Part shown: piece by piece, positions 4,768 through 46,305 of the stretch
Layout: the number at the start of each line of letters is the position of its first letter
Position numbering within the stretch: position 1 is the stretch's first letter
Origin: Candidatus Limnocylindrales bacterium
Lineage (GTDB): Bacteria > Chloroflexota > Limnocylindria > Limnocylindrales > CSP1-4
Direction: 5' to 3'
Length of the DNA stretch: 64,000 nucleotides
Assembly (NCBI GenBank): GCA_049967415.1
Contig: JBMFSS010000002.1
Coordinates: 87,717 to 151,716, forward strand
Position numbers and translations under genes: made by a program
Notes under the pieces: model-generated
Told to the model about the DNA's origin: nothing
Seen by the model: the letters and a program-made list of their open reading frames with translations, nothing else
Database searches by the model: none

Positions 4768-5597
4768 GCGGCCCGGGCCATCCGCACCGGGATGCCGGCT
4801 GCCGCCATGGCGTGCTTGACGGTGGCGATTCCGTGCAGGTCCCGGTGAAAGATGGATGCAGCCAGGACCGCGTCTGCCCCTCCTTCGAGGATTGCAGCCA
4901 CCAGGTCGTCCGGGCTGCCGGCTCCCCCTGACGCCACGACCGGGACCGAGACCGCCGCTGTCACCGCGCGCAGCAACGGCAGATCGTAGCCCCCGCGCGT
5001 CCCGTCCCGGTCGATGGACGTCAGGAGGATCTCGCCTGCGCCACGCGCGGCCGCCTCGGCAGCCCAGGCGACCACGTCCCGACCGGTCCCGGTTCGTCCG
5101 CCATGAACGACCACCTCCCAGTGCTGGCCTCGCGCCAGTGGCGCCGTTGCGGCGCCGCCGCGAGTCCCGCCGTCCAGGGGCGGGCCTCCGGGGTCGAGAC
5201 GCCGGGCGTCGATGGAGACCACCACGCATTGGCGGCCGAACCGTCGGGTGCAGCGATCGATCAGCGCCGGATCACCCACCGCTGCAGTGTTGATGGCGAC
5301 ACGATCGGCACCCGCCCGCAGAACCGCGCGCATGTCATCCACCGAGCGGACCCCGCCGCCGACGGTGAGGGGCACAAAAGCCCGTTTGGCCGTCCGCTCC
5401 ACCGCGTCGAGCAGGGTGCTCCGTCCTTCCACTGCGGCCGTGATGTCGAGCAAGACAATTTCGTCCGCGCCGGCCGCCGCATAGCGCGCCGCGAGCTCGG
5501 CCGGATCGCCTTCGTCCTGCAGTTCGACAAAGCGGGTTCCCTTGACAACCCGACCATCCCGCACGTCCAGACACGGGATCACCCGGCGGAGCAGCAT
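4764..5597 (-). CDS. hisF: Imidazole glycerol phosphate synthase cyclase subunit
   Basis: 277 aa; [20 protein letters not shown]...[11 protein letters not shown]...GGGVRS...ASGGAG, the classic HisF (beta/alpha)8 sequence. Confidence 0.95.
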
Positions 5598-6331
5598 CAG
5601 GGGCTCTCCTTCCGCAGGCCGCGAACGTCCCCCGCCGCGACCTCCACCAACCCGGAACGCGCGACCAGCTGCACGACGCCGGCAAGCAGACGCACTCCAT
5701 CCGGCCCGGATTTCTCCGGATGAAACTGCAGGCCCAGCAGACGCCCCTCAGCGACCACGCTTGCGAAGCGCCCGCCATGCTCTGTCTCGGCAACCACCAC
5801 CTGGGGGTCGGCAGGGACCGGCGCGAAGGAGTGCACGAAGTACATTGGCGCGTGGTCCGGCAGGCCCGCCAGCACCGGATGCCGCCGGACCGGGTCGACC
5901 GTGTTCCAGCCGATGTGGGGCAGGCGGGGTGCGTCGGGTAACCGGCGTGTCTCGCCGGCAATCCAGCCCAGCCCCCACGACCCATCTTCCTCCGACCGTC
6001 CAAAGAGCAGCTGCATCCCAAGGCAGATCCCCAGATACCAGGCCCCGTCAGAAACCGCGGCCTCCAGCGCCGCGTCCAGGCGGGCGCGCCGCAGGCGCCG
6101 GATCGCGGGCCCCTGGGCGCCCACCCCCGGCATCACCACCAGATCGGGCCGTCCCAGTTCCCTGCCGTTCCGCGCGACTCGGACGGTGGCCCCCACCAGC
6201 CGCAACGCCTGGCCGATACTGAGCAGGTTGCCTGCCCCGTAGTCGACGAGCGTGATCGACACCGTCTCGCCGGACTCGGCCACGGATCCGCCCGCACGGC
6301 TGTCGGCAAAGGGAGGCGGCTCAGAGCGCAT
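5597..6331 (-). CDS. hisH: Imidazole glycerol phosphate synthase glutaminase subunit
   Basis: Class-I GATase: [11 protein letters not shown]...PGVGAQG...GICLGMQLL (catalytic Cys)...HSF. The chosen start MRSEPPPF (ATG 6331) overlaps the hisB 3' end by 11 nt. The exact start is uncertain, and the long N-terminal extension in the ORF track is not supported. Confidence 0.85.
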
Positions 6332-8167: not shown

Positions 8168-9609
8168 GGTCGCGCGCTCCCGGCTCGCTGCCCTTTACTC
8201 TCGCCGGCACCCGCCCCACCGTCAGGCGACTGGGTCTCGAAGCGAATCTCGACAGCCCGACGGTGGGCCGGCAGTCCTTCGGCTTCCGCCACGGCCCCCA
8301 CCGCTGACGCGATTGACGCGAGACCGGCAGGGTCCAAAACCTGCGCCTGCATCCAGTGACCGAAGTCCGTGACCCCCAGCGGGCCCCGGACCCTGGCCAG
8401 TCGTCCGGTGGGCAGCACGTGATTGGACCCAGTGGCATAGTCACCGGCGGACTCGGGGGCCCAGGGGCCCAGGAAAACGCTTCCGGCGTGGTGAATCCGC
8501 GGGAGCAGCGCCAGGGCATCGCCGCAGGCCAGCGAGAGATGTTCGGGCGCATACTCGTTGACGAACGCGATCGCCTCGTCAATCCCGGCGGCCAGCACGA
8601 TCAGCCCGGAGGAGCGAAGCGAGGCGGCGAGAAGGCCGATGCGGCGCTGCTTGGGCAGCTGACGGTCGATCTCGAGCTGGACTCGCTCGGCAAGCTCGGT
8701 GTCGATGGTGACCAGCACGGCTGCTGAGTCAGGTCCGTGCTCGGCTTGACTCAGCAGGTCCGCGGCGACGTGCGCCGGGTTCGCCGTCTCATCCGCGAGC
8801 ACCAGGACTTCCGACGGACCGGCAGGCATGTCGATCCCGACGTCTCCGGTCACCTCGAGCTTGGCCGCCGTCACCCAGGCGTTCCCAGGACCCACAATCA
8901 GGTCGACCGGCACAACGGTTTCGGTCCCATAGGCCAGCGCCGCAATGGCCTGGGCTCCGCCGATCGCGTAGAACTCCTCGATCCCCAGCAGGCCGGCGGC
9001 ACCGAGCAGAACCGGCGAGATCCGCCCGTCACGCCCGGCAGGGCTTGCCACCGCGATCTGCCGGACACCCGCCAGGCGGGCCGGGATCACCCCCATCACC
9101 AGCGAGCTCGGGTACGCTGCCTCACCACCCGGCACGTAGATCCCGGCCCGGTCCACCGGGCGCCAGACCCGACCGACGCGGATCCCTGGCGCAACATCCA
9201 CCCACTCCTCGGGCTGGGGCACCTGCGCCCGATGGAACGTCTCGATATTCCGGATCATCAGCCGCAGCGCCTCCCGGAGCCCGGGGGCCAGACGCTCAGC
9301 CGCGCGGCACAGCACTTCGGGAGGAACGCGCAGCGGCGCCGGCGTCGCGGGCGGCGCGCCAGTCGGGATCCCCTCACTCCAGGCTCCGCCGAGGCTCGCA
9401 CCCAGCTCCCTCAACGCGGCGTCCTTTTCCGCTCGAACGCGCTCGACGACGGCGCGCGCCGGGACCCGCACCTCGGCCCCAGTCCCGGGTGATCGGGCAG
9501 TCAAGGCGCGGCGCTCGGCCGTGCTGATCGTGTCCAGGAAGACGCGCCGCAGCTGAACGTTTGCGACAGGACCGGTGCCATCCGGCCGATTTGCCTCGAT
9601 CCCGTTCAT
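8164..9609 (-). CDS. hisD: Histidinol dehydrogenase
   Basis: 481 aa; [25 protein letters not shown] and [25 protein letters not shown] motifs of HisD. Confidence 0.93.
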
Positions 9610-10454
9610 GGAAGGAGCAGCTCGACCGGGAGGACCAGGATCCCACTCGCACCGGCGGTACGCAGGCGGCCAAGGAGCCCCCAGACCTCGTCCGCACCCA
9701 CTACCGCATGGACCGCCACCATGCCCGGGCGGGCCAGGGGGACCACGCTGGGCGACCCCAGCCCCGGCAGCAGCGTTTCAATCTCCGGGAGAGCCCCGAT
9801 CGGTGCGTTCATCATCAAGTAACGACGCTCCCGGCCGTCAACCACCGCCCGCACCATGGTGACGACCTCATTGGCTGGACCGTCCACACCGGGGTTGGCC
9901 ACCAGGATCGCCTCGCTGGTGAGGAGCGTCCCAATCGAGCGGAGCCCGTTGACGAGCAGGGTCGAGCCAGTCGAAACCAGATCCACAATGGCGTCGGCCA
10001 CGCCCATCCGCGGCGCTACCTCTACCGCGCCGCTCAGGGGGACCAGGGTCACATCGATGCCGCGCTCGAGGAAGAAGCGGGCCGCATACGCCGGGTGCGA
10101 GGTGGCAATGCGACATCCAGCCAGATCCTCGAGTGTCTGGCCCGGCGCATCGGTGGGCACCGCGGCATCCAGCCGACAGCGCCCATAGTGAAGCGCCGCA
10201 CGCGTCTCCAGCGGGCGCCCGGACTCGGCCAGCAGGTTGGTCCCGGTGATGCCGATGTCGGCGACGCCGTCACCCACGAACTCCACCACGTCCTCGGTCC
10301 GGATGAACAGGATGTCCAACGGGAAATTGGCGCAATGACTGACCAGGGAGCGCTCGCGGGCGTCGAAGACGAGCCCCGCATCGTGGAGCAGCGCCAGAGT
10401 CGGTTCCAGCAGCCGCCCTTTGTTGGGGACCGCCAGGCGCAGCCGTGTTGTCAT
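9606..10454 (-). CDS. hisG: ATP phosphoribosyltransferase, long form
   Basis: Internal start MTTRLRLAVPNKGRL (cat at 10452-10454). 283 aa including a C-terminal regulatory domain. The upstream part of the track ORF is an Arg-rich artefact. Confidence 0.9.
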   Translation of the reverse strand: MTTRLRLAVPNKGRLLEPTLALLHDAGLVFDARERSLVSHCANFPLDILFIRTEDVVEFVGDGVADIGITGTNLLAESGRPLETRAALHYGRCRLDAAVPTDAPGQTLEDLAGCRIATSHPAYAARFFLERGIDVTLVPLSGAVEVAPRMGVADAIVDLVSTGSTLLVNGLRSIGTLLTSEAILVANPGVDGPANEVVTMVRAVVDGRERRYLMMNAPIGALPEIETLLPGLGSPSVVPLARPGMVAVHAVVGADEVWGLLGRLRTAGASGILVLPVELLLP

Positions 10455-10858
10455 GATTGAGCGGCCTCGACGCCGACGGCGGCGCTGACCCCGCCTCCCG
10501 CGACTCCAGGGGATCGGCCGATTGGCCCGCCACCGATCAGGCTCGGAAGCGGCTCCCCGCGGCGCGCGGCCCGCCGCTCGAGCGCCTGTCGATAGCCGCC
10601 CATGCCATGGTGCAGCCACCCGGCAATCCGGGTCACCGTGGCGGTGCTTGCACCCGAGCGCCGCGCTACCTCACCGTAGTGGAGCCCCTCTGCGAGCAAC
10701 CGGACTACCTGCCAGCGCTGCGCCAAATCGTGCAACTCTCCCAGCGTGCACAGATCGCGGAGGAAGCGCGCAGCCTCGTCCCGATCACGCAAATCCACGA
10801 TCGCATCGAGGAGTTCGTCGGTCTCTTGCGTCTGCCACGTCTCGCGCGCTTCGATCAC
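10451..10858 (-). CDS. TrpR-like YerC/YecD-family putative DNA-binding protein, translationally coupled upstream of hisG
   Basis: The core ...ETDELLDAIVDLRDRDEAARFLRDLCTLGELHDLAQRWQVVRLLAEGLHYGEVARRSGASTATVTRIAGWLHHGMGGYRQA matches the YerC/YecD (TrpR-related) family signature (TLxELxxxAQRxxVxxLLxxGxxYxExxxxTGxSTATIxR). The probable GTG start (VIEARETW...) is preceded by GGGAGAC. The stop overlaps the hisG ATG. The start coordinate is uncertain by a few nt. Confidence 0.7.
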   Translation of the reverse strand: MIEARETWQTQETDELLDAIVDLRDRDEAARFLRDLCTLGELHDLAQRWQVVRLLAEGLHYGEVARRSGASTATVTRIAGWLHHGMGGYRQALERRAARRGEPLPSLIGGGPIGRSPGVAGGGVSAAVGVEAAQS

Positions 10859-10924
10859 GCTGTCTCCCGTTCTTTTGCGCGGTCTCCTATGGGCCAGCCG
10901 ACGCCGCGGCTGAGCGGCGACCCG

Positions 10925-18891: not shown

Positions 18892-21291
18892 GTGTGCGAA
18901 CGATCGGATCGGGTCAACCGGCCGATTGTCCGACCGGCCACCGGTCCCCACACTGCCAAGCGAGAGCGGGACAGGATCGCGCACGGAGTACGTCATATGC
19001 CGCGCCGCGGATGGCGGGCCGACGACTCGCAGGGAGCCGCCGGTACCAGCGACCCTCGCCGCGACTTCTGGTCGTCGCGCGCGATCGCCGACGTGGTGCT
19101 GGAACACCTGAGCGACGCGGTGTTCGCCACTGACCCAGCAAACCGCGTGACGCTCTGGGGCCCCTCGGCGGAGCGGCTGTTCGGGTACTCCCGGGATGAG
19201 GCGTTGGGCCGGCCATTCGGCGAGCTGCTCCCCTATCGCATGGACGCCGAGGGCGACGAGGACGCCTTCATCGCGGCGCTCCGGGCCGGGCAGACCTGGC
19301 GTGGCTCGGGCAGCGTGCGCCTCCGCGACGGCACCGAGCGCTGGATCGAGTCGGTGGTGCGGCCCATCCTCGAGGACGGGCAGCTGCTCGGGAGCGTCTC
19401 GGTGAGCCGGGACATGACCGCCCAGCGCGCGGCCGCGCAGCAGCTCCACGACCAGGAGCGCTTCCTCGGCGCCGTGCTCGAGCTGATGGGCACCATCGTC
19501 AGTGTGTTGGACGCCCAGGGTCGCATCATGCGCCTCAACCGCGCGGCCCAGGAGGTGAGCGGGCGCACCCTCGCCGAGCTCGTGGGGCGACCCGTCTGGG
19601 AGGTGCTCGTCCCGCCTGCTGAGGCGGCGGCCGTGCGGGCCAGGTTCGCCCGCCTAGCCGCCGGTGAGGCGCCCGGCACCTCCGAGAACCACTGGGTCAG
19701 CGCCTCCGGCGAGGAGCGCCTCATCCGCTGGTCGAACACCTGCCTCACCGACGCGACCGGGGCCGTGACCCACGTGATCGGGGCAGGGATCGACATCACC
19801 GACGCGCGCCGCACCCGCGATGCCCTCGACGGCATCGAGGCGGTGGGACGACTGCTGGCCAGCAGCGGTCCCACGGAGGCCGCTCTCGACGCCGTGGTGG
19901 AGCGCCTGGGCACCCTGATGGGCTATCGGTACATGGCCCTCATCCTCCGCGATGGGGAGCGCTGGCGGCTCGGGGCGCAGCGCGGGTATGGGTCCCTACC
20001 GCCCTATTTCGAGCCCGGGCGCGGGGTCATCGGGCGCGTCATCCGCACCGGGGTCCCCGCCTTCGTGGCCGACGTGCTGGCCGATCCCGACTATGTGGCG
20101 GACGATGCGCGGGTGCGCAGCGAACTGTGCGTGCCGTTGCGGGCCGAGGGCGCCACGCTCGGCGTGCTCGACATCGAAGCCCTCCCGGAGGCGCCCCTCA
20201 CCGAGAGCGACCTGCGCCTGGCGGCCGCGGTGGCGGACCGCCTCGCTGCCGCCCTGCGCCTCGGACACGAACAGCTCGCCCTGCGCGAGCGGGTCCGTCT
20301 GTTCGGCGCCCTCACCGCGTTTGCGCGCCAAGCCGGGGAGGTCGGGGACCCCGAGCAGCTGTGGCCTGCTCTGACCGCTGCCGCGGCCTCGGTCATGGAC
20401 GCGGACCGCGTCTCCCTCACCACGCTGGATCGGAGCAGCGGGCAGTACGTACTGCGCGCGCTGGTCGGTGCGCCCGACGCGCTGGTGGGAACCGGGGTGA
20501 CCCCTGGCCAGGGCGCCGCTGGGCGCGCGATCGCGGAAGGTACCCCGATTCTCCTCGAGGTGCCGGTACAGCACCGCTGCCCCGACCTCGGGCTCCTCAC
20601 TGGGCCCGCCGAGGCCCTGGCGGTGGCCGCGGTGCCCCTGCTGCGCGAGGGCACGGTGCTCGGTGCGCTGGTGTTCGCCCGGTCTGCGGTGCGCGGCTTC
20701 AGCTCCCTCGAGCAGGAGGTGGCCGCGCTCCTCGGCGCGCAGGCTGCCCTCGCGGTGGCCAACGCCCACCTGCTCGCGGCGGTCTCCGAGCTCGCCATCC
20801 ACGATCCGCTGACCGGCCTCTACAACCGGCGACACTTCGACGCCGCGTTCGAGCTGGCGGTGGCGCGCTGGCGGCGGGACCGCGGGCGGTCGCCCCTCGC
20901 CGCGGTGATGTTCGATCTGGATCACTTCGGTGACTTCAACCGGGCGCACGGGCATCCGGTGGGCGACGAGGCGCTGCGCCGGTTCGCCGGGGTGCTGCGC
21001 GAACGGGTGCGCTCGTCGGACCTGGTGGCCCGCTACGGAGGTGAGGAGTTCGTGGTGGTGCTCGAGGACTGCGACCGGGACAGTGCGCGGGCCATCGCCG
21101 AGGCCATCCGGGCGACCTTCGAAGCGCGCCCCATTCCCGGTCCGGAGGGCGCCACCCTGCACGCAACCGTGTCCGCCGGCTGCGCCGTGCTGAACCCCGC
21201 CGAGCCCACCGCGGAAGCCCTCATCCGAGCCGCGGACGAGGGGCTCTTTATGGCCAAACGGGCGGGGCGCAACCGGGTGGTCGCCGTCTGA
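18892..21291 (+). CDS. Multidomain sensor diguanylate cyclase (PAS-PAS-GAF-GAF-GGDEF)
   Basis: Two PAS-like segments (...FATDPANRVTLWGPSAERLFGY..., ...LDAQGRIMRLNRAAQEVSG...), GAF-like segments, and a C-terminal GGDEF domain (RYGGEEFVVVLED, HDPLTGLYNRRHFD). An alternative start at M36 (18997) is possible. Confidence 0.85.
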   Translation: MCERSDRVNRPIVRPATGPHTAKRERDRIAHGVRHMPRRGWRADDSQGAAGTSDPRRDFWSSRAIADVVLEHLSDAVFATDPANRVTLWGPSAERLFGYSRDEALGRPFGELLPYRMDAEGDEDAFIAALRAGQTWRGSGSVRLRDGTERWIESVVRPILEDGQLLGSVSVSRDMTAQRAAAQQLHDQERFLGAVLELMGTIVSVLDAQGRIMRLNRAAQEVSGRTLAELVGRPVWEVLVPPAEAAAVRARFARLAAGEAPGTSENHWVSASGEERLIRWSNTCLTDATGAVTHVIGAGIDITDARRTRDALDGIEAVGRLLASSGPTEAALDAVVERLGTLMGYRYMALILRDGERWRLGAQRGYGSLPPYFEPGRGVIGRVIRTGVPAFVADVLADPDYVADDARVRSELCVPLRAEGATLGVLDIEALPEAPLTESDLRLAAAVADRLAAALRLGHEQLALRERVRLFGALTAFARQAGEVGDPEQLWPALTAAAASVMDADRVSLTTLDRSSGQYVLRALVGAPDALVGTGVTPGQGAAGRAIAEGTPILLEVPVQHRCPDLGLLTGPAEALAVAAVPLLREGTVLGALVFARSAVRGFSSLEQEVAALLGAQAALAVANAHLLAAVSELAIHDPLTGLYNRRHFDAAFELAVARWRRDRGRSPLAAVMFDLDHFGDFNRAHGHPVGDEALRRFAGVLRERVRSSDLVARYGGEEFVVVLEDCDRDSARAIAEAIRATFEARPIPGPEGATLHATVSAGCAVLNPAEPTAEALIRAADEGLFMAKRAGRNRVVAV

Positions 21292-21799
21292 CCGTGCCCC
21301 ACCCGCCAACCCGCGCTGTCTGCCCCGCCGAACCGCCGGTTGTGCATCAGGCAGACACGGTGATACCAGGGGGGACAGCCCACGTACCCCGCGGGCGGCT
21401 CCGCCGGCCGCCCAGGTCGACAGCGCTGCCGGCGCGGCGGGGGCCGCCCCCGCGGTCACGAGCGATGGCACCGCGGCGACTGCTGGGCGCCTGCCCTCGA
21501 CCTCGGGGCTCCCCGGGGTGGAAGGTACCAATGGCTGGGCCACCTGCTCGACCTGGTAGGTAGCCCCGGTGCCGGAAGCCCCGGAACGCGTGGGGAGACT
21601 GGCACCTATCCACCCCTACACTGACCCTCGGAATGTAGCGCCGCAGAGCATGCGGGCGGCGGGACCTAGGACCCTGACCGGACCCCGCCGGGTGCGCCAC
21701 ATTGTATTAGGCGTTTTTTGGCCATCCCCGGCCGCGGGACCCGCCCGGCCGGGCAGGCGCACCGGTGGCGAGCGGGCAGCTGTGAGTGAGGCATAGCAG

Positions 21800-23275
21800 A
21801 TGGCAGAGGCGGCCGGCAACGTGACGCGCGTCGAGGAACTCGGCGAGATCACGTCCACCCACGCGTACACCTTCTCGCTCAAGACCTTGACCTGGGGCAC
21901 GCTGGCGATCACGGCCCTCATGGGGCTGCTCTATTTCGCGGTCGGCTTTCCGCCGGCCTTCGACACCTTCTACGAGTCGATGTATTTCCATGCGGTGGGA
22001 ATCGGGCTGGCGGCGCTGGCGGCCTACCTCGTGATGGATACCTTCGACCTCCAGCGTTACGAGCCTCCGATGGACTTCCCGATCTCGTACCGGGCGTTCA
22101 TCGGTGTGGTCTTCGCGGCCATCGGCGGGATCCTCACCATCAATCCCACAGTCTGGAAGGACCTGCCCGACCTCGGGATGCTCTTCTACCTGACCGCCTT
22201 CATCCTCCTCTTTGACGTGGGCGGGGCGCTCTTCATCGAGCTCCTGCTGCTCCCCCGCAAGCAGGTCAGCGCGTACTGCTGCGAGAGCCACAACGTGGTC
22301 GAGTACGTGAGCCGCATCCTCCCGATCGCCCCGGCGCAGCGGCAGTCATACGCAAAGGTCGGGGTGGGCTACTGGCTCACCCTGGCCGCCATCGGCTCGG
22401 CGTTCCTGGCTGGCGTGGTGGGCTTCGTCAACCTCTGGGTCCGGGCTCTCGGCCCGTCGATCTTCGGGGGGTACATGGGCTGGCTCAAGCTCGACGCGAA
22501 CGGTTTCCTCGGCGCGACCCTGGACCCCCACACGCACATGATGGCGCTTGCGATCATGGCCGGGATCGTCTCGGTGGCGGCGGTCCGCTTCGGCGTCCTA
22601 GACGGCGCACCCTCCGTCCGGCGCACGGTCGCGCATGTCGGCCTCTGGATCTCGGTCTTCGGCGTCGCCGCCATGACCGTCATCCTGCTGGCGGTCGCCT
22701 TCCTCAACTTCACCCCGCCCACCCTCTTCGCGAGCGGCAAGGACGGGATCAATGGGATCGCGGGCGACGACGCATCGATGAGCCTGATCGGGATCGGGGC
22801 CATGGTCCTGGTGGTGGCGGTGCTCGCCGAGCGCCGTTTCTGGCGCGACCCCCTGCGCCTGATGGTGCTCGCCACCTGGGTCGCGGCGGTGGCCATCAAC
22901 ATCATCGAGGGCTTCTACATCGAGCTCAACGAGAACCAGTTCCAGGCCGCGCTCACCAAGAACGACGCCGCCTACAGCGTGGCGCAGCCGATGACGGGAG
23001 TCTTCCTGCTGATCGCCGTCTCGCTCGCGCTGCTGCTGGTCGACCATTACGAGATCGCCGGGGGTGCGCGACGCCTGGTGGCGTGGGTTGCGGGGATCGG
23101 ACTGCTGGTGACCCTGGTCGGTGTCACTCTCTGGACCTTTGCCGATCCCTCGCACAGCGGGATCCCCTTCGTCCTCTACGTGGCGGGTGTGGCGATCTGC
23201 TATCTGATGGTCGTCCTGGGTGCGTGGGCGGTCTGGACGGCCCGGACCGGCAGCTACCGGCGTACGTATCCATGA
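21800..23275 (+). CDS. Polytopic integral membrane protein of unknown function (~12 predicted TM helices)
   Basis: 491 aa of alternating long hydrophobic stretches, with no motif I can assign to a known family (CCESH, HTHMM, VDHYEI). Its TGA overlaps the ATG of the downstream heme O synthase gene (ATGA). It is preceded by a ~240-nt low-GC leader. Confidence 0.6.
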   Translation: MAEAAGNVTRVEELGEITSTHAYTFSLKTLTWGTLAITALMGLLYFAVGFPPAFDTFYESMYFHAVGIGLAALAAYLVMDTFDLQRYEPPMDFPISYRAFIGVVFAAIGGILTINPTVWKDLPDLGMLFYLTAFILLFDVGGALFIELLLLPRKQVSAYCCESHNVVEYVSRILPIAPAQRQSYAKVGVGYWLTLAAIGSAFLAGVVGFVNLWVRALGPSIFGGYMGWLKLDANGFLGATLDPHTHMMALAIMAGIVSVAAVRFGVLDGAPSVRRTVAHVGLWISVFGVAAMTVILLAVAFLNFTPPTLFASGKDGINGIAGDDASMSLIGIGAMVLVVAVLAERRFWRDPLRLMVLATWVAAVAINIIEGFYIELNENQFQAALTKNDAAYSVAQPMTGVFLLIAVSLALLLVDHYEIAGGARRLVAWVAGIGLLVTLVGVTLWTFADPSHSGIPFVLYVAGVAICYLMVVLGAWAVWTARTGSYRRTYP

Positions 23276-24222
23276 ACGCACATCCGCTGGGTCTGCCCTA
23301 CGGGGGCCTGCCGGCCGCAAGAACCGCCCCGGTGCCCCGTGGCCGAGCGCTGGCGCGCCGGCTGGGCGCGTACTGGGCGGTCCTGGATCCGCGCAGCGCC
23401 TCCCTTCTGACATTCACGGCGTTTGCGTCTGCCATCGTGGCCGGCGGCCTGCTGGTGCCCGCGCGGTTGGCCGGCATCACGCTGGCACTCGGGCTCTGCG
23501 CGCTGGGCGCCCGGGCGGTGGCGAACTATATCGACCGTGACATCGACGCCCTGATGACGCGTACCCGCTCGCGCCCGCTGCCCTCGGGCGCGATCCCGCC
23601 GGCCCATGCGCTGCGGCTGGGGATCGCCCTGATGGCGATTGGGCTCCTTGGCGTCGCCTCGTTCGGGATCCTGGCGCTGGCGCTCACCGTGCTCGGGCTG
23701 GCGGACAACCTGGTCGTCTACGCGCTCCTGACCAAGCGCTCCAGTCCCTGGAGCATTGTCCTCGGCGCACCTTCCGGCGGCGCGCCGGCCTTGGTCGGCT
23801 ATGTGGCCATAGCCGGCCGGATCGACCTGACCGCGCTCTTTCTGCTCGGTTTCGTGCTGGTGTGGACGCCGATCCACATCTGGAGCCTGGCGATCCGGAG
23901 CCGGGACGACTACGCGCGAGCCGACGTCCCGATGCTCCCGGTCACCTCCGGCGTCTGCTGGAGCGCGCGTTGCGTCGGACTCGCGAGTCTGGTGCTCGCC
24001 GTCCTGACGCTCGCGTTCGTGTTCGGGTCCGGCACGCGCCTGGTGGCGCCGATCGGTGCCCTTGCGACGGTGCTGGGGGCCGTGCTGGTCCTGGGCAGCC
24101 TGCGGCTGGTCCAGGCGCCGACGGCCGAACGTGCCTGGAAGTGCTTCAAGCTGACGGCCCCTTACCTCGGCACCCTCTTTGCGCTGCTGGCCCTGAACGC
24201 GGCCGTTGTGGGCGGCGTTTGA
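23272..24222 (+). CDS. ctaB: Protoheme IX farnesyltransferase (heme O synthase), UbiA family
   Basis: NYIDRDIDALMTRTRSRPLPSGAI matches the CyoE/CtaB signature (N.IDRDID..M.RT..RPL..G). About 8 TM helices. Starts at MNAHPLGLPYG. The upstream part of the track ORF is an out-of-gene extension. Confidence 0.85.
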   Translation: MNAHPLGLPYGGLPAARTAPVPRGRALARRLGAYWAVLDPRSASLLTFTAFASAIVAGGLLVPARLAGITLALGLCALGARAVANYIDRDIDALMTRTRSRPLPSGAIPPAHALRLGIALMAIGLLGVASFGILALALTVLGLADNLVVYALLTKRSSPWSIVLGAPSGGAPALVGYVAIAGRIDLTALFLLGFVLVWTPIHIWSLAIRSRDDYARADVPMLPVTSGVCWSARCVGLASLVLAVLTLAFVFGSGTRLVAPIGALATVLGAVLVLGSLRLVQAPTAERAWKCFKLTAPYLGTLFALLALNAAVVGGV

Positions 24223-24253: not shown

Positions 24254-24949
24254 GTGGTTGCGCGTGCAATAGTTGTACCCGCAATGAATACCGACGCACG
24301 ATCAGCGTTCCCGGGCGCCCCGTCTGCCTGGGGCGACACAACCGGAACCGCTGGCTCACCAGAACCCCTTCGAATCGCCGCTCTGCTGGGCAGCACCCGG
24401 CGCGGTTCGCTGAACGCCGCCCTGCTTCGCGCGGCCCGCACGGTCGCTCCTGCCGACGTGATCATCGTTCCTCTCTCGATCGAGCAACTGCCCTTCTACA
24501 ACGGTGACCTGGAGTCAGAGGGCGGCAGCCCCCTGGTGCACTCGTTCCGGGCCGCGATCGCCGCCGCCGATGGTCTGCTGATCGTCACGCCGGAGTACAA
24601 CCACAGCCTTCCCGCGGTCGTCAAGAACGCGATTGACTGGGCCTCGCGTCCACCTTCCGACCGGTTGCTGGCTGGCCGCCCGGTCCTGCTCATGGGCGCG
24701 ACCGGCGGTCGCTCGGGCGTGAAGTACGCGCTGGGTCACGCGGCCGAGATCCTGGGTTTTCTGGGCGCGAGGCCGTTCGAGCGCCGGCTGGGCGTGCCGC
24801 TGGCCGGGGAGCGCCAGGGCCCGGACGGCGAGCTTTCCGACCCGGTGCTGCGAGGGGAAGTGGCGGCGCTGCTCGCGGAGTTCGCCGCGTCGATCCGGGC
24901 GGATCGTGCCGTTCCGGCAGCAGCCCTCGGGAGCTGGGCCGTGGCATGA
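24254..24949 (+). CDS. NAD(P)H-dependent FMN reductase family protein
   Basis: LRIAALLGSTRRGSLNAALL...LLIVTPEYNHSLPAVVKNAIDWASRP is the flavodoxin-like SsuE/ChrR/ArsH-family signature. The start is ambiguous (M1 or M11). Confidence 0.8.
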   Translation: MVARAIVVPAMNTDARSAFPGAPSAWGDTTGTAGSPEPLRIAALLGSTRRGSLNAALLRAARTVAPADVIIVPLSIEQLPFYNGDLESEGGSPLVHSFRAAIAAADGLLIVTPEYNHSLPAVVKNAIDWASRPPSDRLLAGRPVLLMGATGGRSGVKYALGHAAEILGFLGARPFERRLGVPLAGERQGPDGELSDPVLRGEVAALLAEFAASIRADRAVPAAALGSWAVA

Positions 24950-25179: not shown

Positions 25180-26375
25180 ATGGCTCGGATCATCGTGTAC
25201 ACCGGCAAGGGTGGCGTGGGCAAGACCAGCATCGCTGCCGCCACGGGGCTGCTGGCTGCCGCCCGGGGCTATCGCACCATCGTGCTCTCGACCGATGCGG
25301 CGCACAGCCTGGCCGACTCGTTTGACTTGCCGTTGGGACCCGAGCCCACGCCCGTGGCCCCCAACCTCTGGGGCCAGGAATCGGAGGTCTCGCACAACAT
25401 CCAGAAGTACTGGGGCGTCATCCAGGACTACGTCTCCACGGTCTTCCAGTGGCGCGGGCTGGACGAGGTGATGGCCGAGGAGATGAGCGTCCTCCCCGGC
25501 ATGGACGAGCTGGCGAGCCTGCTCTGGATCGCGGAACACCATGACAAGGGCCAGTACGACCTGATCGTGGTGGACGCAGCACCCACGGGGGAGACGCTGC
25601 GGCTGCTCTCGCTCCCGGAGGCGGGCAAGTGGTGGATCGAGAAGATCTACCCGATCAGCCGGCGCATCGCACAGGTGACCAACCCGATTGTGGGGCGGGT
25701 GATCGGGATGCCGATGCCCGGCGACGAGGTCTACACGGCCGGCGAGCAGCTCTTCGCCCGCCTCGAGCACATGCACGACCTGCTGGCCGATCCGCAGCTC
25801 ACCTCGATCCGCCTCGTGCTCAACCTCGAGAAGATGGTGATCAAGGAGGCCCAGCGCGCCTTCACGTACTTCCACCTGTACGGGTATCCGACCGACCTGG
25901 TGGTGTGCAACCGGGTGGTCCCGGAGGATGCGGGCCCCTACTTCGAGGCGTGGCGCCAGGCGCAGGCGCGGTACTGGCCGGAGGTCGAGGCAGACTTCGA
26001 TCCGATCCCCATCCGGCGCGCGCCCTTCTTTGAGCATGAAGTGGTGGGCATGCCCATGCTGCAGCAGCTGGGCGCCGAGGTGTTCGGCGAGGAGGACCCG
26101 ACGGGCTTCTTCTACCGGGGCAATCCCTACCGCGTCACCCGGGAGGACGGCGCCTTCGTGCTCGCGCTCGAGCTGCCGTTCACCTCGAAGGAGGAGGTGA
26201 CGCTCCATCGCAACGGCGACGAGCTGGTGGTGCAGGTGGGGTGGTGGCGGCGCAACCTGATCCTCCCCCGGTCCTGGTGGATCTGCCCACCGGAAGCGCC
26301 GGGTTCGAGGACCACGTGCTGAAGGTCAGGTTCTCGGCCGGACCGAGAACGAAGTCAGGAGCGTCGAAGCGATGA
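25180..26375 (+). CDS. ArsA/Get3-family P-loop ATPase with a C-terminal ArsA_HSP20-like domain, apparently frameshifted near 26270
   Basis: MARIIVYTGKGGVGKTS (deviant Walker A)...DAAPTGETLRLL (ArsA signature). The C-terminal region is alpha-crystallin-like (EDGAFVLALELPFTSKEEVTLHRNGDELVVQVGWWRRNLILPR). The annotated frame ends ...SWWICPPEAPGSRTTC* at 26322. Another frame reads LVDLPTGSAGFEDHVLKVRFSAGPRTKSGASKR* ending at 26375, which fits an HSP20 C-terminal strand. The shift lies in ctcccccggtcc (C5). Confidence 0.75.
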
Positions 26376-44331: not shown

Positions 44332-46305
44332 ATGGCGGCGCCCCGTACCATGTGCAGCGTGAACCGTCCGGCCGATCCCTACGTCCCTCCGCAGCCCGAT
44401 CCCTACGAACCGTTCGAGCCGTACGTCTTCGACTACCGGCCCCTTCCCATCACCCCCTTCGAGTACGTCCTCCGGGATTTCCTGGACGAGCTCTTCCTTG
44501 CCTATCCCGTGCTGGCGACGCGGGTGGGCGACCACCGGTTCGACAATCGCTGGCCCGATCTGTCCGGCACCGGCCGGCTGACCCGCATCGGCGCGCTGCG
44601 CCGCTGGCGGTCGCGGTTCGAACCGATGCGCGACCTCGGCCTGACCCCCGACGAGCGGGTGGACCGGCAGGTTCTCCTCGAGGCCATAGACGGCATGCTC
44701 TTCGAGGAGGAGGTCCTTCGAGAGGAGACGTGGAACCCGCTCTTCTACGTGGAGCTGCTGGGGGACGGGTTTCACCTGCTGCTGGCACGCGACTACGCGC
44801 CGTGGCACCACCGGGGCGCGGCGTTCGCCTGGCGGCTTCGCTACCTCCCGCAGGTCACCGCCGCGGCCCGCGCCAACCTGCTGGGAATGCCTGGCCGGCC
44901 GGTCTCCCGGCTCCATACGGAAGCGGCCCTGGAGCACCTGGATGGCATTGGCCAGCTCATCGACGAGGCGGTCCGCATCGCCGACAGGAACCGGTACGAC
45001 GAGGAATCGTTCCGGCTGCCGGGGCGGCTGGCCGAGGTGGTTCCGGGTGCACGCGCGGCCTTGACTGATTTCCGGGACTACCTGGAACGGGACGTCCTGC
45101 CGCGGGCGCAGGGCGATGGCCGCCTGGGTCCGGACCTCTACGCCCGCAAGCTGCGTCTCATCCTCGCCAGCGACCTGTCGCCGGCCGACCTGGCGGCCCG
45201 GGCGAACCGGGACCTGGTGGCCGTGCGGGCCGAGATGGGGCGGCTGGCGCGGGCACTCTGGCCCACCTGGATGGGCGACGCGCCGTTGCCCGTCGCGTCC
45301 CGCACGCCCAGGGCGCCGGACGGTGCGCGGCTGGCCGCCCCGGCCGAGATCCGGATGGCGCAGGGTGCCGTGGACGACGCTGACGGCCCCGTTGTGCGCG
45401 CGGTCCTCGACGCGATCTCGCGGGAGCACCGGCAGCCCGAGGAGCTGGCGGACTACTGCCGACGAGAGGTGGGCCGGATCGAGCGGTTCGTCCGTCGCAA
45501 CCAGATGATCGGGCTGCCGCACGAGCCGCTCGAGATCGCCTGGACGCCCGTCTTCATGCGTGCGCTCGGAGGCGCCTTTCTCGACCCGCCGGGCCCGCTG
45601 GAGCGCGGCCAGAAGAGCCTCCTCTTCATCACGCCGCCGGGCGAGGACTGGCCCGCGGACCGCGTGGAGTCGTACCTGCGCGAGGACAACGACCGGATGC
45701 TGCGGCTCCTCTGTATCCACGAGGCGATCCCCGGGCATTTTCTGCAGCTCGACTGGTCCAACCGGTGCCCGTCGATCGTTCGTTCCATCTTCGCGTCGGG
45801 GGCTTTCATCGAGGGCTGGGCGGTCTACATCACGCAATCGATGATGGACGTCGGCTACGGTCGGCGGGATCCGGCACTGATGCTGACCCACTGGAAGTTC
45901 TACCTGCGCTCGATCATCAACGCGCTGCTCGACGTGGGCATCCACGCCGGCTCCATGTCCGAGGACGAGGCGATGCGGCTGATGGTGGAGATCGGCTTTC
46001 AGGAAGAGCAGGAGGCGCGCGCCAAGTGGACCCGGGCGCGTCTCACGTCGGGGCAACTCTCCACCTACTACGTGGGCGCCGCGGAGCTCTGGGAGCTGGA
46101 GCTCGAGGCGCGCCGCCAATGGGCGGCCGCACACGGGGGACGGCGTGAGGACGTGGTGCCGCCGGCGCTGGTGGGCGGCTGGGGCGACGTCGGCGACTTC
46201 GACTACCGGGGGCACCTGCAGGAGCTCGTCTCGCACGGGTCGCCGCCCGTCCGCTGGCTGCGGCGGATCGTGCTGGGCGAGACCCCGGTGGCGTCCAAGG
46301 CCTGA
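44332..46305 (+). CDS. DUF885-family putative metallopeptidase
   Basis: CIHEAIPGHFLQ (HExxH-like motif characteristic of DUF885); 657 aa. Confidence 0.7.
   Translation: MAAPRTMCSVNRPADPYVPPQPDPYEPFEPYVFDYRPLPITPFEYVLRDFLDELFLAYPVLATRVGDHRFDNRWPDLSGTGRLTRIGALRRWRSRFEPMRDLGLTPDERVDRQVLLEAIDGMLFEEEVLREETWNPLFYVELLGDGFHLLLARDYAPWHHRGAAFAWRLRYLPQVTAAARANLLGMPGRPVSRLHTEAALEHLDGIGQLIDEAVRIADRNRYDEESFRLPGRLAEVVPGARAALTDFRDYLERDVLPRAQGDGRLGPDLYARKLRLILASDLSPADLAARANRDLVAVRAEMGRLARALWPTWMGDAPLPVASRTPRAPDGARLAAPAEIRMAQGAVDDADGPVVRAVLDAISREHRQPEELADYCRREVGRIERFVRRNQMIGLPHEPLEIAWTPVFMRALGGAFLDPPGPLERGQKSLLFITPPGEDWPADRVESYLREDNDRMLRLLCIHEAIPGHFLQLDWSNRCPSIVRSIFASGAFIEGWAVYITQSMMDVGYGRRDPALMLTHWKFYLRSIINALLDVGIHAGSMSEDEAMRLMVEIGFQEEQEARAKWTRARLTSGQLSTYYVGAAELWELELEARRQWAAAHGGRREDVVPPALVGGWGDVGDFDYRGHLQELVSHGSPPVRWLRRIVLGETPVASKA

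Follow-up and report, generated by a model that had tools for sequence, protein, structure and literature searches.

Which protein receives the heme O that is made at a locus with a heme O synthase gene and no recognizable oxidase gene? Heme O synthase has one accepted purpose, the supply of farnesylated heme to heme-copper oxidases (HCOs), either directly or by way of heme A. In the 64,000-nucleotide stretch of the genome of Candidatus Limnocylindrales bacterium analyzed here (the window), which belongs to a Chloroflexota metagenome-assembled genome (MAG), the heme O synthase gene ctaB (cyoE) overlaps the gene for a 491-amino-acid (aa) polytopic membrane protein that belongs to an undescribed family. 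The best reading of this protein, which rests on a structure model, is that it belongs with subunit I of the HCOs and nitric oxide (NO) reductases, as a relative that has diverged greatly. On balance, we favor the view that it receives heme O, in the way that CyoB is served by CyoE, and uses it in a different active site or as a single redox center.

Gene pair, family, and predicted fold

The overlapping pair comprises the following elements:
21800..23275, plus strand: gene for the 491-aa protein with 12 transmembrane (TM) helices; predicted HCO subunit I fold, undescribed family
23272..23275, plus strand: 4-nucleotide (nt) ATGA stop/start overlap, as read from the sequence
23272..24222, plus strand: heme O synthase gene ctaB/cyoE of the UbiA family (TIGR01473, PF01040)

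The product of the first gene is deposited as NCBI MGC8633319.1 and is labelled "hypothetical protein." Its ATG at 21800 is the first start 3' of an in-frame TAG, and GAGG at 21788-21791, 9 to 12 nt 5' of this ATG, is a plausible ribosome-binding site. At the other end of the open reading frame (ORF), the TGA at 23273-75 shares two bases with the ATG of ctaB at 23272. The ctaB product scored 226.4 bits against the TIGR01473 equivalog model, which passes the cutoff of 210.3, and matched PF01040 at 1e-44; as judged from these profiles, it is a true heme O synthase. An earlier reading of the DNA, made from the letters and a list of ORFs (the sequence-only reading), had described a 491-aa polytopic protein with about 12 TM helices that was translationally coupled to ctaB. 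Both descriptions were borne out, since the ORF at 21800..23275 is real and its AlphaFold model has 12 TM helices, and since the ATGA overlap leads into an ORF that passes TIGR01473.

The same reading had called the protein unclassifiable, and the databases agreed. No Pfam match was found at E ≤ 0.1, including COX1, and there was no match in NCBIfam or to any PDB sequence; the family profile likewise found nothing among PDB sequences. A word-indexed search of 5.8 billion proteins returned 153 relatives, all unnamed and without Pfam domains, and when 1.84 billion cluster representatives were searched exhaustively with the profile, only 159 were returned. Literature searches, which were of partial coverage, returned no description of the oxidase-fold family. 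The members of the core family are 485 to 515 aa long and 35 to 96% identical to the window protein, and their hosts, all of which are MAGs, include Chloroflexota (Limnocylindria), an Actinomycetes bin, Acidoferrum, Bathyarchaeia, Thermoplasmata, Nitrososphaerales, Micrarchaeota, and Marsarchaeota. The members of a distant sister subfamily are 430 to 500 aa long, and the profile match to them covers TM5 to TM12 only. This subfamily occurs in Cuniculiplasma MAGs, in Thermoplasma, in Conexivisphaera, and in other Nitrososphaerota, and its hosts include the cultured archaea Thermoplasma volcanium GSS1 (TVG1190485), Conexivisphaera calida, and Tardisphaera miroshnichenkoae, which puts biochemical tests within reach. 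Two relatives (P0093 and P0120) carry an extra C-terminal soluble extension of about 90 aa, and another (P0122) carries an extra N-terminal soluble extension of about 200 aa.

Modeling of the window protein with AlphaFold2 from a 30-sequence alignment gave a structure with 12 TM helices, a pLDDT of 88.5, and a pTM of 0.89. The top Foldseek matches of this model were COX1 and qNOR, with probabilities of 0.90 to 0.99, TM-scores of 0.42 to 0.49, and weak E-values of 0.04 to 0.3. The alignments with HCO subunit I span 350 to 407 residues, a length that needs about 11 to 12 helices, and the fold match is therefore colinear. According to the model, then, the 491-aa protein has the 12-TM fold of HCO subunit I. 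Lysine and arginine together average 14.1 residues in the predicted cytoplasmic loops of family members versus 0.47 in the outer loops, and by the positive-inside rule the N terminus is therefore placed inside, as in HCO subunit I. Furthermore, in TM2, TM6, and TM10 the conserved His residues are set 7 to 13 residues in from the outer end, which is the depth of the HCO metal centers. The family and HCO subunit I are thus alike in having 12 TM helices, an inside N terminus, and His residues in TM2, TM6, and TM10 at the same depth; nevertheless, the 491-aa protein is only 9 to 13% identical to HCO subunit I, and both Pfam and hhalign are blind to the relationship. NnrS proteins (PF05940) are 12-TM heme- and copper-containing membrane proteins; the 491-aa protein had no Pfam match to NnrS at E ≤ 0.1, and NnrS was absent from the fold-search lists, no NnrS fold comparison having been made.

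Conserved residues and the heme-copper oxidase ligands

Conservation was counted in 430 full-length members aligned to the family profile, 133 from the core family and 297 from the distant subfamily. The conserved positions that bear on a cofactor site are as follows:
21989..21991, plus strand: codon of His64 in the motif MYFH, TM2; kept in 421 of 430 members
22523..22543, plus strand: motif DPHTHMM, TM6, containing His244 and His246; each kept in 425 of 430 members
22766..22771, plus strand: Asp323-Asp324 in the motif NGxAGDD at the outer start of TM8; near-invariant in both subfamilies
22922..22924, plus strand: Glu375 in the motif GFYIE at the outer end of TM9; conserved in both subfamilies
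22985..22987, plus strand: Gln396, TM10; a position that varies among Gln, His, and Asn across the family

His64 is located about 7 residues from the outer end of TM2. Asp323 is kept in 418 and Asp324 in 425 of the 430 members, and Glu375 is kept in 374, with Asn in its place in 43 of the 297 distant members. Position 396 is His in 293 of 297 distant members and, within the core family, is Gln in 75, His in 49, and Asn in 9. Tyr296, in TM7, is found in 294 of 297 distant members together with Thr327, whereas core members have Leu or Phe at position 296, Met327 (131 of 133), and Met398 (108 of 133), and these positions differ between the subfamilies in a correlated fashion. The cbb3 oxidases have their active-site Tyr in helix VII, and the invariant TM7 Tyr of the distant subfamily recalls it. 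In addition, Asp139, which lies mid-membrane in TM4, is invariant, and conserved acidic clusters are found at both membrane faces (E88/D92, D323/D324, and E375). No conserved His was found in TM7 among family members, and TM10 HxH was never present among them, the distant subfamily being without a second His. Of the three motifs singled out in the sequence-only reading, DPHTHMM proved to be conserved across the family, and CCESHNVVEY and VDHYEI are confined to the closest relatives. That reading had also raised the matter of invariant His residues in the TM helices, and three near-invariant ones are present, namely, H64, H244, and H246.

Comparison with HCO sequences supplied leads on which of these residues correspond to known ligands. 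No signal was obtained with hhalign for the family against Escherichia coli CyoB alone; against a six-sequence alignment of A/B-family HCOs (sequences from plasmid records and from E. coli), the probability was 4 to 9%, or 0.7 to 9% across runs, and an HCO hidden Markov model (HMM) scored the 491-aa protein at noise level. In every hhalign run, at low probability, His64 stood opposite CyoB H106, the helix-II ligand of the low-spin heme. With a 70-sequence superfamily alignment, the low-confidence hhalign result was colinear and placed His246 opposite H284 (the helix-VI CuB ligand), position 396 opposite H419 (the proximal His of high-spin heme o3), Met398 opposite H421 (the second ligand of the low-spin heme), and Pro307/Thr308 opposite the CuB pair H333/H334. 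These putative equivalences with CyoB are low-confidence leads that fit the helix order and the membrane depth.

The departures from the HCO pattern are extensive. The helix-VII His-His pair, which provides the CuB/FeB ligands, is absent, with P307/T308 opposite H333/H334, and in place of the helix-X HxH, the window protein has Gln396 and Met398. The CuB ligands H333/H334 and the heme b ligand H421 of E. coli CyoB are thus without a His counterpart in the 491-aa protein. Unlike HCO subunit I, the family has one His or Gln in TM10 and no helix-VII His-His; it adds a second His in TM6 (HxH), the invariant DD in TM8, and the E in TM9, and no cytochrome c subunit gene adjoins the family gene. Because the helix-VII His-His pair and the second helix-X His are missing, no canonical heme/CuB center is possible, and the 491-aa protein, judged by its residues, is not an ordinary O2 or NO reductase. 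The described HCO families all retain their active-site His residues, with gNOR, in which one is replaced, as the only exception (Murali et al. 2024; PMC11214002), and a family that has neither the helix-VII His pair nor the helix-X HxH therefore falls outside all of them.

Altered ligands do have a precedent on the HCO scaffold. In gNOR an Asp replaces the active-site His, and in nNOR the low-spin heme has His/Met ligation (Murali et al. 2024; PMC11214002); in the low-confidence alignment, Met398 of the core family falls opposite the second low-spin ligand. However, gNOR and nNOR are recognizable B-family-related HCOs with cupredoxin-type partners and a single ligand changed, whereas three of the six ligands are missing from the 491-aa family, which is also without a partner subunit. 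The ligand pattern is unprecedented within the HCO fold, and the family is, on the evidence of the model, a strongly divergent and newly recognized one within that fold, with a function that is a prediction.

Linkage to heme O synthase and the competing readings

In the window and in 20 or more other distinct loci (related loci carry L numbers below), the family gene has ctaB as its neighbor. The neighbor passed TIGR01473 in every tested locus, that is, in the window, L002, L016, L020, L024, L028, L030, L040, L049, and L056, with scores of 219 to 312 bits in the loci other than the window. The pair, whose recurrence among relatives had been proposed as a check, was found in Chloroflexota, Thermoplasmata, and Micrarchaeota/Marsarchaeota, with the genes arranged in four different ways. 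It is codirectional with the same 4-nt overlap as in the window in the Chloroflexota loci L002, L004, L005, and L007 and codirectional with a 37-nt gap in L030; ctaB is 5' of the family gene and codirectional with it in L014 and L016; the pair is divergent in the Thermoplasmata loci L026-L029, L031, and L033, the other order found in Thermoplasmata having ctaB upstream; and it is convergent, with the 3' ends within about 35 nt, in the Micrarchaeota/Marsarchaeota loci L025, L032, L034, L036, L037, and L040. In the distant subfamily, the L049 gene is divergent from ctaB with a 120-nt gap, and in T. volcanium ctaB is 3.3 kb away. The gene pair is real and well conserved.

Homologs of cyoA, cyoB, and cyoC were not found by tblastn in the 64-kb window or in 41 related loci, and an HMM search (--max) found no A/B-family subunit I in the window or in related loci. 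With no canonical oxidase subunits nearby, the 491-aa protein is therefore the only oxidase-fold candidate for a heme O client there. No partner subunit II is encoded alongside, as judged by tblastn with cyoA and by the Pfam families of the neighbors. The E. coli operon cyoABCDE is a precedent for a heme O synthase gene alongside oxidase genes; unlike that operon, the window locus is without subunits II, III, and IV, and its oxidase-fold gene directly overlaps ctaB.

An oxidase fold with half of the metal-binding His residues, combined with ctaB adjacency in distant taxa, therefore suggests that the 491-aa protein is probably a new heme O-using protein. One mRNA would yield the 491-aa protein and heme O synthase through the ATGA stop/start overlap, and farnesylated heme O from the coupled CtaB would most likely be inserted into the 491-aa protein, by analogy with cyoE in the E. 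coli oxidase operon. The candidate cofactor pocket would lie in the outer membrane half and would comprise His64, His244, His246, Asp323/Asp324, Glu375, and Gln/His396. The product would be a heme O protein that functions by itself, most likely as a redox enzyme whose active-site metal or set of ligands is a different one. A more specific version, which we regard as tentative and rather unlikely, is that the family and its sister subfamily form an unrecognized branch of the HCO superfamily, in which case the 491-aa protein would be a single-subunit heme O enzyme with a non-CuB site. That site would be formed by the TM6 His pair and the carboxylates, plus the TM7 Tyr in the sister subfamily, and the enzyme would have a respiratory or detoxifying role. 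Lübben and Morand (1994) are reported to have observed O-type hemes in Thermoplasma, and Thermoplasma is not known to carry canonical HCOs.

Several results weigh against a heme O client related to the HCOs. Homology with HCOs was undetectable by sequence, whether by Pfam at E ≤ 0.1, by the PDB profile search, or by hhalign (4 to 9%), and the core-family alignment alone gave another register in hhalign, in which the TM6 HxH pairs with the helix-X HxH. At position 396 the window protein has Gln and not His, which makes a His-ligated heme there less likely. Among the called neighbors of family members, Pfam identified no cupredoxin, cytochrome c, or Rieske donor. Finally, among core-family loci with adequate flanks, ctaB was nearby in 0 of the 9 H396/N396 loci; its presence within 2.2 kb in 21 of the 23 Q396 loci counts in favor of the heme O link. 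The association of residue 396 with ctaB adjacency has a P value of 2e-6 by Fisher's exact test, computed without phylogenetic correction. The H396/N396 loci without ctaB are mostly from Bathyarchaeia, with some from Limnocylindria.

The linkage matters because a heme O synthase is tied in expression, across bacterial and archaeal phyla, to an oxidase fold without oxidase metal sites. If the 491-aa protein binds heme O, then it would be a new class of heme O protein, it would offer a candidate explanation for heme O synthase genes without accompanying oxidase genes, and the HCO superfamily would extend past the invariant six-His rule, which in the latest HCO survey holds apart from the one gNOR substitution (PMC11214002). 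If the family is indeed a branch of the HCO superfamily, then heme O synthase would have a real client in organisms or loci without a canonical oxidase, and a living HCO scaffold without a copper site would bear on the origin of the O2 and NO reductases.

The alternative that survives best, although we consider it unlikely, is that the protein handles heme O or heme A, either as a chaperone or insertase for an oxidase encoded elsewhere or as a heme A synthase-like modifier. The sequence-only reading had proposed a heme-handling or assembly factor; the heme O link in that proposal stands, and the assembly part is unsupported, since no canonical oxidase gene is nearby. CtaA/Cox15 is also a frequent neighbor of heme O synthase, polytopic, and equipped with conserved His residues, and the 491-aa protein sits by ctaB, where ctaA is often found, and has conserved membrane-embedded His residues of its own. 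CtaA/Cox15 proteins (PF02628) have 8 TM helices in two 4-helix bundles with paired His residues and, in type 1, paired Cys residues in the outer loops; the 491-aa protein does not have this architecture, and it has no Pfam COX15-CtaA match. For several heme A synthase types, the gene adjoins that of heme O synthase in 75 to 91% of cases (PMC12808453). The lack of an electron-input subunit nearby also fits a handling factor, as does the loss of half of the catalytic ligands, which would be expected of a non-catalytic derivative. However, oxidase genes were found in none of about 50 neighborhoods, the family gene is kept next to ctaB in MAGs of Micrarchaeota, whose genomes are small, and the predicted fold is that of an enzyme and not of any known assembly factor. 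Nothing specifically favors an assembly-factor or heme A synthase-like role, which we doubt.

We consider it quite improbable that the protein is a heme-free scaffold with the oxidase fold, serving as a channel for protons or ions, as a transporter, or as a structural membrane protein, with its adjacency to ctaB reflecting co-regulation only. Such a scaffold would account for the missing half of the canonical ligands, for the invariant mid-membrane Asp139 and the acidic clusters at both faces, and for the many members of the H396 and N396 types that are not beside ctaB. Yet >97% of the 430 members retain three to four membrane-embedded His residues, positioned as deep as the HCO metal centers, and the adjacency to ctaB persists through four arrangements in different phyla, which would be difficult to account for if the two genes were functionally unconnected.

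It is very improbable, and effectively excluded, that the protein is an ordinary subunit I of a terminal oxidase or NO reductase that has diverged beyond the reach of Pfam: the HCO subunit I fold and an operon shared with a heme O synthase gene, as in cyoABCDE, are what such a protein would show, but there is no conserved TM7 His, no TM10 HxH, and no subunit II or cytochrome c partner, and the described HCO families retain their active-site His residues save for the one in gNOR (PMC11214002). A secondary transporter of the major facilitator superfamily (MFS) or a similar 12-TM family, as might be guessed from 12 TM helices, about 490 aa, and no cofactor motif recognizable by eye, has a negligible chance of being correct and is likewise effectively excluded, having been refuted in effect by the fold searches, in which MFS matches had probabilities of ≤0.3 (best, 0.30; TM-score, 0.20), and having no Pfam match.

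Accompanying genes and the leader

The archaeal loci have a third conserved partner gene, encoding a polytopic membrane protein of about 225 aa without a Pfam family. It is 3' of the oxidase-fold gene in Thermoplasmata and 3' of ctaB in Micrarchaeota, and neither the window nor the Chloroflexota loci contain it. Examples of this gene are as follows:
L028 (of L026-L033), 9587-10285, plus strand: membrane protein of about 225 aa
L034, 2273-2932, minus strand: membrane protein of about 225 aa
L040, 10392-11060, minus strand: membrane protein of about 225 aa

Candidates considered for these groups elsewhere were rejected. In T. volcanium, a 178-aa ORF 3' of ctaB gave no match as a "cluster 5" membrane partner. 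In L045, a 455-aa ORF near a UbiA gene is not a family member and hence not a paralogue, and the UbiA protein is not a heme O synthase.

The closest genome relative is L004 (Chloroflexi bin DBS2-4.bin61; 80% identity), in which a distant-type paralogue (Tyr296/Thr327/His396) lies 1.4 kb 5' of the core gene-ctaB pair, with paralogue and pair falling within 5 kb, and a hemerythrin-domain ORF adjoins this paralogue. Its genes are located as follows:
L004, 3122-4693, plus strand: distant-type paralogue
L004, 6106-7560, plus strand: core-family gene of the pair
L004, 7557-8501, plus strand: ctaB of the pair
L004, 2051-2917, minus strand: hemerythrin-domain ORF

In C. calida (AP018732.1; L055, 8699-9439, plus strand), two small 4Fe-4S ferredoxin genes are directly 5' of the distant-subfamily gene, and their products could be electron donors.

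The region upstream of the 491-aa ORF in the window is a single element:
21292..21799, plus strand: intergenic leader from the PAS-GAF-GGDEF gene to the 491-aa ORF; GC content of 0.734, ordinary

The sequence-only reading had described positions 21560-21800 as conspicuously AT rich and as a possible site of a promoter or regulatory RNA. At 0.701, against a mean of 0.717 for the window, the GC content of this segment stands at the 34th percentile among all 241-nt windows and is thus ordinary; the leader had no Rfam match at E ≤ 1, and scans of it for a sigma-70-like promoter and a terminator found none, so neither part of that description was upheld. The 491-aa ORF itself is the lowest-GC 1.5-kb stretch in the window (0.663). 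Its GC content at third codon positions (0.913) is similar to that of the neighboring genes, and the dip is therefore attributed to hydrophobic amino acid content and not to foreign origin. The lowest-GC 241-nt stretches of the window are at about 10721-10921 and 45681-45900 (about 0.60 versus the mean of 0.717), and both are far AT richer than 21560-21800.

Directly 5' of the oxidase-fold gene, the window carries a PAS-PAS-GAF-GAF-GGDEF diguanylate cyclase gene (18892-21291, plus strand). A GAF-GGDEF gene (5410-6072, plus strand) lies 4 kb 5' of the family gene in L002, a 61%-identical locus, and the upstream GGDEF gene in the two loci may represent conserved synteny. On the other side of the pair, an NADPH-dependent FMN reductase gene (24254-24949, plus strand) begins 32 nt past the ctaB stop on the same strand and an ArsA-type ATPase gene (25180-26322, plus strand) follows 3' of ctaB, also on the same strand; this neighborhood is not kept in related loci. 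At 4925-5026 on the minus strand, ARAGORN calls a 102-nt tRNA-Arg(acg), in a window in which an Rfam scan at gathering thresholds returned no tRNA over the whole length; the call is probably false, or else it marks an unusual intron-bearing gene.

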